A stretch of DNA of 64,000 bases from Trueperaceae bacterium (GTDB taxonomy: Bacteria > Deinococcota > Deinococci > Deinococcales > Trueperaceae): assembly GCA_965215565.1 (NCBI GenBank), contig CBDCDZ010000004.1:2496001-2560000 (forward strand), written 5' to 3'. Both the position numbers and the translations under genes were made by a program. The notes under the pieces were generated by a model. The model searched no databases, had not been told where the DNA came from, and worked only from the letters and a program-made list of their open reading frames with translations. Below, one piece after another: positions 5,876 to 36,966 of this stretch; position 1 is the stretch's first letter; each line of letters begins with the position of its first letter.

Positions 5876-5986
5876 TAGCAGTTCCACTTATCATTGCTAC
5901 ACTTCTCCGCAGATATCATCTTTGAAAGTGCGTGCTAGGCGATGTTCTTTTTAGTGAGAGTGTAGCTGACCAGATGATACCTGCTA
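5876..5986 (+). repeat. Dispersed MITE-like repeat family A, copy 1 (contains empty IS110 target ACCAGATGATACCTGCTA at 5969-5986)
   Basis: Ends TAGCAG...CTGCTA. Internal blocks (GCAGATATC, GCGTGCTA, AGTGAGA, ACCAG..GATACCTGCTA) are shared, with variation, by the copies at 21572, 34138 and 61523. Confidence 0.8.
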
Positions 5987-34137: not shown

Positions 34138-34237
34138 ATAAGACCAAGTATGAGTGAGGCGGGTGAGCGCAGATATCGTCTCAGAACGTGCGTGCTAGAC
34201 ACCGCTTTGCATAGTGAGACTGGCTCAAACCAGATGA
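34138..34237 (+). repeat. Repeat family A, copy 3, interrupted by IS110 (its end continues at 35362-35372)
   Basis: GCGCAGATATCGTCTCAGAACGTGCGTGCTAG...AGTGAGA...ACCAGATGA | IS110 | GATACCTGCTA; left boundary approximate. Confidence 0.8.
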
Positions 34238-34253
34238 ACTTAGTATAGAGTTG

Positions 34254-35192
34254 TCAAGCCCCCTTCCACCTCTGTGGGTGCTGCTGAGTGACTTGCAGCA
34301 TGAAACGAAAGAGTTCTCTTGCGAGATAGGTTTTGAGACTTCTTAGAGCAGCCCGGCGGGTCTTGCCTTGCTGCTGTTTCTTGTCGAGATAGGCTCTTGT
34401 CGGTTCGCTGTGGCGCAGTCTGACTTGGGCAATCATGTGAAAGGTGCGGTTGAGCCGACGGTTGCCGCCGATGTTGAGTTGCCTTCTCTTCTGACCACCA
34501 GAAGAGCGCTCGACAGGCGCACAACCTGAATACATGGCAAAGGCGTGTTGTGAACGAAAGCGTCGGATGTCACCTGCTTCAGCAAGTAGCGTGGCGGCGT
34601 GAACGACGCCGACGCCAAAGACCTCTAAGAGTTCAGGCATCAGTTCGTCAACGAGGGCTTTCATCGCCTGCTCGAGCGTCTTGAGTTGTTCTTTAAGCAC
34701 TGCAATAACGGCTTCGACGGCTTGGCGAGCCACCTCTAGCTCAAGGCTCGCTAAGCTCAGCTTGTGCGCTGTAAGCTGTTTAGCTAGCGCTTCTCGGGTG
34801 CGGGTCAGATGTTTGAGGTCTTCAACCGCTTGCCGAGGTGCAAACGTAGTCAGCTCAGGATTAGCCAAAGCAGCCCGAGCTACGTTTTCAGCGTCTACCT
34901 CATCACTCTTCTTGCGTCCTCTTTTGCTGCGGTACTGACTCGTCAGACTCGGACTAATGTCCACAACCTTATGGTCCTGCCCGAGCAACGCTTGACTCAA
35001 CCTCCGAGCAAAGGGGTTATTCGCCCCTTCAATAGCGCACCGCTGAACGTCATAGCGCTTTATCCAGTGCTCCAAAGTTGCCAAGCCCTCAGCCGTATTC
35101 GTAACGGTGCAGTGACCTAATACCTTGCCCTGTTTATCTAACGCTGCTGCGGTATGGCTCTGCGGATGTGGATCAACCCCTATAATGACCAT
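34254..35192 (-). CDS. IS110 family recombinase/transposase
   Basis: RuvC-like DEDD residues (GVD, IEG, KSDEVDA), coiled coil, Tnp domain GVG..A..LLAE.GD..RF, catalytic SSG, GNRRL; SD AAGGAGG. Confidence 0.96.
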   Translation of the reverse strand: MVIIGVDPHPQSHTAAALDKQGKVLGHCTVTNTAEGLATLEHWIKRYDVQRCAIEGANNPFARRLSQALLGQDHKVVDISPSLTSQYRSKRGRKKSDEVDAENVARAALANPELTTFAPRQAVEDLKHLTRTREALAKQLTAHKLSLASLELEVARQAVEAVIAVLKEQLKTLEQAMKALVDELMPELLEVFGVGVVHAATLLAEAGDIRRFRSQHAFAMYSGCAPVERSSGGQKRRQLNIGGNRRLNRTFHMIAQVRLRHSEPTRAYLDKKQQQGKTRRAALRSLKTYLARELFRFMLQVTQQHPQRWKGA

Positions 35193-35207
35193 ACAACCTC
35201 CTTAGGT

Positions 35208-35348
35208 TGCTGCTCACGGTAGCTGCTTATCCGTCTATGAGGCTACTAAGCGTCTTAGTATCAGGCAAGCTCCGTGTAGCTTAGTGAGCGAGGTGTGCAG
35301 TTCATCTGTTAGCCCTAAAGCTGATACTTGCTGGGCATCACCTCGCTT
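35208..35348 (-). ncRNA. Predicted IS110 bridge RNA (target-binding and donor-binding loops)
   Basis: Stem AGCGAGGTG/CACCTCGCT encloses AGCAAGTATC and ACAGATGA, which match the two target halves. Stem CACGGAGCT/AGCTACCGTG encloses ATACTAAG and ATAGACGGA, which match the donor junction halves. Boundaries approximate. Confidence 0.85.
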
Positions 35349-35413
35349 CTCTTAATATACGGATACCTGCTAGTAGAAGGCTCGCCCTTGAAAATAAGAT
35401 AACCTTGTGTAAC

Positions 35414-36090: not shown

Positions 36091-36966
36091 AGACCTCTTG
36101 CAAAAGTAGACATATAGCTGCAAAGTAAGGCTATGCGATACGAAGAGATTAGAGGACTAGCGCCAGAAGGGTTCAGACGTTTGACAGGCGTCAAGCCTGG
36201 TGTGTTCAAACAGATGCTCGACGTTCTAGGAGAAGCTGAACGGCAGAAGAAGAAGGCGGGACGCACAAGCAAACTCAGCTTGGAGGACAAACTGCTCTTA
36301 GCGCTGTCGTACTGGCGCGAATACAGGACGCAGTTTCATATTGCGGCGAGTTACGGACTGCACGAGTCCACAGCGAACCGGATCATCACACGGATTGAAG
36401 ACGTACTCATCGCTTCAGGCAAGTTCAGCTTACCTAAAAGGCGCGAGGTGGAAGAGATTGAGTGGACTGTCGTCTTGATTGATGTCACCGAGACGCCTAT
36501 TGAGAAGCCCAAAAAAAGGAGCGACGTTACTTTAGCGGAAAAAAGCAGCGCCACACGCTGAAGAGTCAAGTGCTGGTAGACGCAAGTGACACGAGGATTC
36601 TTTCAACAGCCCACGCCAAAGGTCCCAAGCACGACTACAAGCTGTTCAAAGAAACAGCCCCTAGGTGTAAACCTGAAGTCTGGTACGTCGCTGATAGCGG
36701 CTATCAAGGCTTAGCAACGCGTCATCCACAGACCTGCTTGCCCGTCAAAAAGCCTAAGGGCGGTGAGCTTAGTGATGAAGCCAAACAACACAACCGCGCT
36801 CTAGGACGCTTCCGCATCGCGGTAGAACATGTGATTCGTTCGCTCAAGATCTGGCGTATCCTCAAAGAAACTTACCGTAATAGGCGCAAGCGCTTCTCCT
36901 TACGCTTCAACCTCATCGCCGGGCTCATCAACGCCAACCTCGATTCATGACTTTTGCAAGAGGTCT
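36091..36966 (+). mobile_element. IS5-family (ISL2/IS702-like) insertion sequence, 876 bp
   Basis: Perfect 17-bp TIR AGACCTCTTGCAAAAGT / ACTTTTGCAAGAGGTCT; 3-bp AGG target duplication. Confidence 0.95.
36133..36950 (+). CDS. IS5-family transposase, orfA/orfB joined by a -1 frameshift at the A7 tract 36511-36517
   Basis: FRRLTGV HTH in orfA, IDVTE.PIEKPKK; the -1 frame continues KERRYFSGKKQRHTLK...ADSGYQG...RIAVEHV. Confidence 0.9.

Follow-up and report, generated by a model that had tools for sequence, protein, structure and literature searches.

The window, a stretch of 64,000 nucleotides from a Trueperaceae bacterium, carries an IS110-group insertion sequence at 34236-35363 (minus strand; 1,128 bp from core to core) that is very probably active and operates like IS621. 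Its ends, core, target, guide covariation and intact catalytic residues can all be read at the sequence level. Recombination is apparently conservative at a TC core, and the element inserts strictly at the left end of an intergenic MITE of about 300 copies.

The element, its copies and its target repeat

The element sits between two plus-strand host genes. Its open reading frame (34254-35192, minus strand) encodes a 312-aa recombinase with an N-terminal DEDD RuvC domain (PF01548) and a C-terminal Ser domain (PF02371). The protein scored 171 bits against NF033542, above the cut-off of 140 (its family and length are those given in the earlier note on this DNA), and it matched the structures of IS621 (8WT6) and ISCro4 with E values of 3e-16 and 3e-14, respectively. 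The catalytic set D7/E55/D97/D100 and S231 is present; all 61 aligned homologs have D7, E55 and D100, and at least 90% of them have D97 and S231. The element has no terminal inverted repeat and no target duplication, and a short core is found at both junctions and once in the empty site. The left end is long (169 bp), the right end is short (16 bp), and the predicted RNA lies 5' of the gene. IS1111-group traits, namely subterminal inverted repeats of 7-17 bp and an RNA in the right end, were absent. The features are as follows, with the target guides abbreviated LTG and RTG and the donor guides LDG and RDG.

5876-5986 (-), unoccupied MITE copy of 111 bp, its target site intact, with a 3-bp duplication
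34160-34235 (-), remainder of the interrupted MITE, with the right target arm at 34235-34231 and no canonical right end
34236-34237 (-), right core TC, from junction comparison
34238-34246 (-), left donor arm, 9 bp, beginning with the conserved ATAC
34252-34257 (-), predicted -35 box TTGACA over the stop codon, 18 bp from the -10 box only in the circle
34254-35192 (-), IS110 recombinase, 312 aa, with putative core-reading loop E55-G-A-N-N
35193-35210 (-), tentative small hairpin over the recombinase Shine-Dalgarno sequence
35212-35280 (-), donor-binding loop (DBL) of the predicted bridge RNA
35228-35229 (-), predicted DBL handshake guide TA, pairing with target -2/-1 after strand exchange
35230-35238 (-), RDG, five contiguous pairs to core and right donor, then probably two looped-out bases and two pairs
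35254-35261 (-), LDG, 8/8 to donor -9 to -2; the next bases, 35253-35252, are unpaired with donor -1 and the first core base
35285-35347 (-), predicted target-binding loop (TBL): outer stem, LTG, inner hairpin (35322-35311), RTG and handshake guide, from the consensus fold with compensatory pairs
35300-35301 (-), predicted TBL handshake guide AC, pairing with donor -2/-1 after strand exchange
35302-35308 (-), RTG, 7/7 to core and right target
35323-35331 (-), LTG, 9 nt, 8/9 to left target and core, with an A:C mismatch at position 4
35355-35361 (-), right donor arm, overlapping the predicted -10 box (35359-35354)
35362-35363 (-), left core TC, the only bases common to target and circle junction
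35364-35372 (-), left target arm, formed by the first 9 bp at the left end of the interrupted MITE, identical at 9/9 left junctions

Seven full copies, differing at 0-1 positions in 1,128 bp, and three remnants (two left-end and one right-end) were found in the source genome, all at the site that the guides predict, as the earlier reading would have it. The junctions fall at the same TC within TAGCAGGTA/TC/ATCTGG (left, 9/9; right, 8/8). TC was taken as the core, in agreement with the core first proposed, because it is the sole sequence common to the target and donor junctions. The element has evidently spread recently. In G000, matches to the RNA model R1 occur only next to the recombinase gene (8/8). 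At two places on contig C4 of this genome (3341787, plus strand, and 160172, minus strand) 19-23 bp of the left end remain, joined to the MITE interior at a short shared sequence; these remnants are deletion scars of two further insertions. A degenerate copy flanked on both sides by the same MITE body (L013, G000 C4 3452600-3453400) differs from the element by 0 substitutions and 19 gaps and is probably an assembly artefact from mixed filled and empty alleles. If the alleles are indeed mixed, movement would still be ongoing. No RNA run with the element was listed among the sequencing runs, and no end-to-start joint of a circle was listed in the contigs of four runs, contigs being apt to drop rare forms; neither result speaks for or against RNA or circle. 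Runs X1/X2 may be of the source sample and are not independent.

The target site is the left end of a dispersed repeat, with 230 exact empty 15-mers and 385 left ends at up to two mismatches. The repeat has a 111-bp base unit, which in longer forms is extended by inserted palindromic modules. A 3-bp duplication surrounds 159 of the 223 complete copies (mean of 7 and maximum of 16 after shuffling), the joined flanks show a 3-bp surplus over empty sites in other (paralogous) repeats, and one copy interrupts an IS630 gene. Since synteny breaks in G001 and G002, where an orthologous empty site of the window MITE was sought and not found, nested and IS630 insertions served for this empty-site comparison. 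Short, non-coding and present in many copies, with inverted ends and target duplication, the repeat that had been called MITE-like is by these features a true MITE. Its 17-mer was found in 17/128 genomes of the family, and the MITE is conserved in at least 7 genera of that bacterial family. Only 21/385 sites lie in ORFs of at least 200 aa, vs. 68% of the chromosome, and none of the filled sites does (0/10), which agrees with the suggestion that the repeat is a safe harbour.

No autonomous MITE transposase with the same ends was found in G000, where 22 long repeat families and the long end pairs were examined, and no match to such a partner was found on plasmids. IS5-type elements of G000 were rejected as the partner; they also make 3-bp duplications but their ends differ. 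A REP/RAYT link was rejected too, as no MITE motif (up to 3 mismatches) was present in the 9 PF01797 loci examined of 11 in five genomes; PF01797 matches in G001 and G002 numbered 0. Within the MITE (e.g., window 5876-5986) are an inverted internal copy of its own left end and a motif equidistant from the two termini, and palindromic modules may be present in addition; the internal copy in G018 bounds a unit of 77 bp whose 14-bp ends are perfect. Several more dispersed palindromic repeat families of the G000 chromosome have been hit by MITE insertion. At another locus (L078, G000 C4 3784734-3788051) an open frame of 1,322 aa with a DNA methyltransferase-like start contains a Y1_Tnp match, possibly through fusion or nested insertion.

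Predicted bridge RNA and proposed mechanism

The strings that the earlier note had read as guides (35323-35332, 35302-35308, 35254-35261, and 35230-35238) and its empty site (5969-5986) were all found at these coordinates. The IS621-type LTG/RTG/LDG/RDG layout held up in the covariation across homologs described below and in dinucleotide shuffles of the 157-nt left end, where 0/20,000 gave even three of the four guide matches in order. The LTG, first given as 10 nt with 9/10 matches, is a guide but measures 9 nt (35331-35323). Position 35332 belongs to the scaffold, being A in 12/14 homologs while the facing target base varies. The RDG at 35230-35238 is likewise a guide, but rather than the contiguous 8/9 pairing proposed, a discontiguous 2+5 pairing with two looped-out bases, as in IS621, fits better, as AT-xx-NCGGA is found in 9/10 close homologs and xx is never the AT needed for contiguous pairing.

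The two stem-closed loops read earlier were recovered, with inner hairpins, in the consensus fold of a 12-sequence alignment, in which homologous loci align across the conserved RNA scaffold and 23/32 pairs showed two-sided compensatory change (in at least one of the 12 sequences). The single-sequence MFE, in contrast, mis-pairs loop 1 and buries the LTG, and the open form costs ∼8 kcal/mol. The folding z of the left-end region is -3.70. By eye, 8 nt in the 3' part of the LTG (35323-35331) are complementary to the beginning of the LDG (35257-35264), which may represent an alternative fold. The hairpin over the ribosome-binding site is seen in most homologs and could conceivably be a translation brake. 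Rfam gave no match to the element left end or to the MITE.

Handshake guides, of the kind described in PMC11208158, follow the RTG and the RDG and had been absent from the first reading. The four handshake bases of the window element pair 4/4 after exchange and none before; pairing only after exchange is said to favor insertion (PMC13626964). The computed RE-LE junction of the circle holds a predicted promoter, TTGACA-18-TATATT. The RNA would start near 35348, right at the first stem, and an IS621-like 5' stem-loop therefore seems absent.

The proposed mechanism draws on the biochemistry of IS621 and CazIS110-1 (PMC13626964; 10.1101/2025.10.25.684509; 10.64898/2026.03.19.712850). The element would be copied out as a circle, whose RE-LE junction would build the above promoter, and an RNA of ∼150 nt would be transcribed from about 35348. 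In a recombinase tetramer the LTG and RTG would pair with the MITE end and the LDG and RDG with the circle junction, and cleavage and exchange would proceed via phosphoserine. Both handshake guides would pair only after the exchange (4/4 pairs), favoring insertion over excision.

Guides, targets and core among homologs

A single-protein query gave no related loci, while an alignment query gave 12 + 3. Counting one representative per guide set, non-core LTG bases matched the element's own target at 6.07/7 positions vs. 2.54 in cross-element comparison (14 elements), and non-core RTG bases at 4.25/5 vs. 1.41 (16 elements); each difference was reached in 0/100,000 permutations, values that overstate independence because the homologs (39-92% identity) are related. 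A one-base register shift of the LTG was permitted in test and control alike. The covariation of guides with flanks anticipated in the earlier note is thus present for both target guides. Left out as identical-guide duplicates were L002, L014, L029, L033, L018, L027 and the element's own copies; also left out were L032 (right end replaced), L003/L026 (right end only) and L020 (right end misfit; left guide matched). L028 and L006 from G018 were tentatively joined as two halves, L012 was retained with a mis-aligned RTG slot (2/5), and L090/L091, read by eye only, both fit. On the donor side, the first 8 nt of the LDG equal the donor in 17/18 elements, with six donor variants. The base after the RTG pairs with donor -1 in 16/16 distinct elements and the base after the RDG with target -1 in 14/14; such first-base handshake pairing occurred in 11 and 4 of 100,000 permutations, respectively.

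The 92% homolog (G002) and a 71% metagenome homolog have unchanged target guides and site. The guides of the 75% homolog (G054) are displaced by 3 nt on the same MITE end, and its three copies stand at the second TC of MITE variants that lack the first TC. Guides of the 67% homolog (G046) match a related motif, which has 55 copies there and 1-5 in four other genomes; the remaining homologs aim at other sites. In a tree of 20 homologs the MITE-end targeters L009, L002, L014 and L029 group together at 94/95, just below the starred level, and neither target register forms one clade. Guides appear to have been reprogrammed naturally between homologs, and the element may be programmable by rewriting its loops. 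Homologs at 67-100% identity share one target motif but read it in two registers offset by 3 nt, which amounts to a natural experiment.

Several homologous loci have peculiarities of their own. L012 (G000 C4 420850-421990) is a broken 56% paralog with its own guides, a stop at codon 238 and loss of the third Asp; it interrupts the left end of an IS630-like element, an end that also occurs empty elsewhere (IS630-like and ISL2-like being partly provisional names). L109 (G046 C1 55836-55953) is a lone target-loop remnant without donor loop or gene, and its LTG matches its own flank. L002, the 92% homolog of G002, has a ∼90-bp insertion just past the start codon. In the most divergent homolog, L024 (39%), the left junction is CC and the right one TC, and another loop follows E55.

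Across the clade the TC core was found at 18/18 right ends and 16/17 left ends, counts that are partly built in, since the end-finding patterns demanded TC at the right end and TC or CC at the left. Of 21 loci with a right end, 20 have TC at a constant 9 bp from ATAC. The second core T of IS621 hardly varies and is read by G63, and A61 and N84 read the first position (PMC11208158). One HMMER alignment to IS621, with a 1-residue gap, puts N58/N59 opposite G63 and S80 opposite N84. EGANNPF was found in 89/115 scored homologs, and an E-G-A-x-[NHT] loop was among the top motifs listed. The IS621/ISCro4 rule of a CT (or NT) core read via A61/G63/N84 does not hold for this element (TC; G63 to N, N84 to S), and we infer that the EGAxN loop (N58/N59, with S80) reads TC rather than CT.

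The donor register is shifted as well. The donor ATA lies 6 bp from the core and the left donor arm is 9 bp. The LDG pairs with donor -9 to -2; donor -1 is paired in 5/18 elements and the first core base in 9/18, and neither is paired in the window element. The core is included in all four guide pairings described in PMC11208160, and the IS621/ISCro4 rule of a 7-bp left donor with the LDG over the first core base does not apply here; the donor arm is probably read 2 nt further out than in IS621. A native 7-nt RTG is already known for some orthologs (PMC11208160). No TC-core IS110 recombinase was found in the literature search, although ISfinder and bioRxiv supplements lay outside it and a published one is possible.

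Insertion pattern and comparison with known systems

All seven full copies precede the GTTTGAG MITE subfamily, which supplies 70 of the 234 empty sites where the 14-nt guide site is exact (p of roughly 3e-4 for seven events and 3e-3 for five independent ones). Two pairs of copies have identical right flanks of 76 and 52 nt; the first 76 nt of the window flank (34160-34235, minus strand) are identical to the flank of another copy. At least two identical 50-mer pairs arose in 4/100,000 random draws and in 129/100,000 draws within the subfamily, and the nearest empty MITE bodies differ by 5 and 7-11 of 60 positions. The shared right flanks and the single subfamily suggest flank co-copying.

A tentative explanation, which we consider possible though not probable, is a partly homing-like spread: the recombinase would make the left junction alone (LT-RD, "direct transfer"), and host recombination in the shared MITE body would finish the right one and co-copy the flank. 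One-ended transfer of this kind would explain both the GTTTGAG bias and the shared flanks, and the left transfer of CazIS110-1 is reported to be ∼10-fold more active than the right (10.1101/2025.10.25.684509). However, for one copy there is an empty twin that agrees with it over 88 nt, and this copy resembles a clean insertion; 4/7 full copies keep an intact MITE duplication, and a 5' vs. 3' chimera test of MITE bodies was not decisive. The bias could also reflect extra specificity 3' of the RTG or the age of the MITE (subfamily), and later gene conversion between filled alleles would yield a similar flank picture. An RTG extension to account for the bias was unsupported by the three sites of the G054 homolog. 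The 52-copy CAAGT..ATTTG subfamily received 0/10 insertions though the guides fit it equally or better, a deficit that is not significant at n = 10; the LTG keeps its fixed mismatch to the site used. With similar reserve we picture a Deinococcota clade that would read TC via the EGAxN loop, use a left donor arm 2 nt longer, specialize on mobile-element ends and spread partly by one-ended, homing-like transfer.

It is rather unlikely that target choice rests on a DNA hairpin at the MITE end in addition to the guides. The target site can form a 5-bp hairpin, CAGGT-ATC-ATCTG, with the core in the loop; it is kept through compensatory change in 52/441 MITE copies and is also compensated in the 55-copy G046 repeat matched by the guides of the 67% homolog, and none of 215 non-terminal near-copies of the 12-mer is used. 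These non-terminal copies mismatch the RTG too, though, so that the guides alone explain their neglect; many homolog targets have no such hairpin, which may serve the MITE's own mobilizer. The model for such a reading would be the target stem-loop of ISPpu10. Like ISPpu9, this REP-targeting IS110 of Pseudomonas putida has multiple copies at one site of an intergenic repeat and a hairpin in its target, but its core is CT and its stem lies 5' of the left target, whereas the stem here is centered on the core.

We regard it as very improbable that the insertion sequence is a passenger of the MITE, moved as a composite by the MITE transposase, with guide matches that record one old insertion. Although MITE duplications enclose MITE plus IS at 5/9 sites examined and two pairs share MITE bodies, the seven copies lie in five unrelated MITE body types and the paired bodies diverge after 52-76 nt; these differing bodies behind near-identical copies largely refute the idea. 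The insertion also splits the MITE left end, no autonomous partner was found, and homologs insert where their own guides point. Least credible of all are chance guide matches or protein-only specificity, statistically refuted by the shuffles, cross-element permutations and compensatory stems.

IS621 (E. coli; 8WT6) and ISCro4/IS622 (9T56) share with the window element the domain order, the catalytic residues, an RNA in the long left end, the order of TBL then DBL, handshake guides, a junction promoter and an intergenic repeat target, as well as a 9-nt LTG whose end lies on the core and whose fourth position forms a non-canonical pair, and a 9-nt discontiguous RDG. The proteins are distant, and their core is CT vs. 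TC here, their loop EATG vs. EGAxN, and their target REP vs. a MITE end with a 3-bp duplication. The donor ATA lies 7 bp from the core in IS621 vs. 6 bp here, with a left donor of 7 bp vs. an arm of 9 bp. A native 7-nt RTG, the 16-bp right end and the apparent lack of a 5' stem-loop also set the window element apart. The recombinase had been called compact; its length of 312 aa is correct, but the size is not special, being 14 aa below IS621 (326 aa) and near the bottom of the 300-460 aa range in PMC11208160.

IS4321 and IS5075 (IS1111 group), which use Tn21 terminal inverted repeats, are described as likewise parasitizing another element's end; the window element uses a MITE end and its 56% paralog an IS630-like end. 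Unlike the window element, they have long subterminal repeats and an RNA in the right end. CazIS110-1 (Caloranaerobacter azorensis) is likewise a multi-copy IS110 with an LE bridge RNA, for which a copy-out/direct-transfer model has been put forward; the parts of its description drawn on here mention no flank co-copying. Protein 0794980a76b3c811f4 in the 1,054-protein tree of PMC11208160 carries the clade motifs GVDPHP and EGAGN, and the clade was therefore sampled in that tree; the row for this protein gives no ISfinder name, RNA, core or target.

Bridge RNAs have been predicted in ∼86% of ISfinder IS110-group elements, and publications (including PMC11208160) already describe IS110 elements that target REPs, attC sites and transposon ends. 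Repeat targeting is common in the IS110 family, a point on which the earlier note overstated its case. The mechanism is the published IS621 one, and the known bridge mechanism is unchanged by our findings; what differs from IS621, as far as sequence comparison can tell, is the clade-wide TC core, the donor register and the MITE-end target. Literature searches found nothing on a Truepera IS110, nor on IS110 with IS630 ends and bridge RNA, and no IS110 aimed at a MITE among the matches listed (titles and abstract starts).

Bridge editing in human cells picks among CT or GT cores (10.1101/2025.05.14.653916), a limit due to the reading of the second core T by the IS621 protein. A natural TC-core clade with a 7-nt RTG, an RNA of ∼150 nt and readable guides, ends and promoter is a candidate to widen the target range and could help to find the residues that determine the core. 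The recently proposed direct-transfer pathway can be examined at the genome level through the shared flanks.

The window also contains an IS5-family element at 36091-36966 (plus strand), with two ORFs, a frameshift at an A run and partial matches to NF033581. It has inverted ends and a 3-bp duplication, and three full copies are present in the genome.
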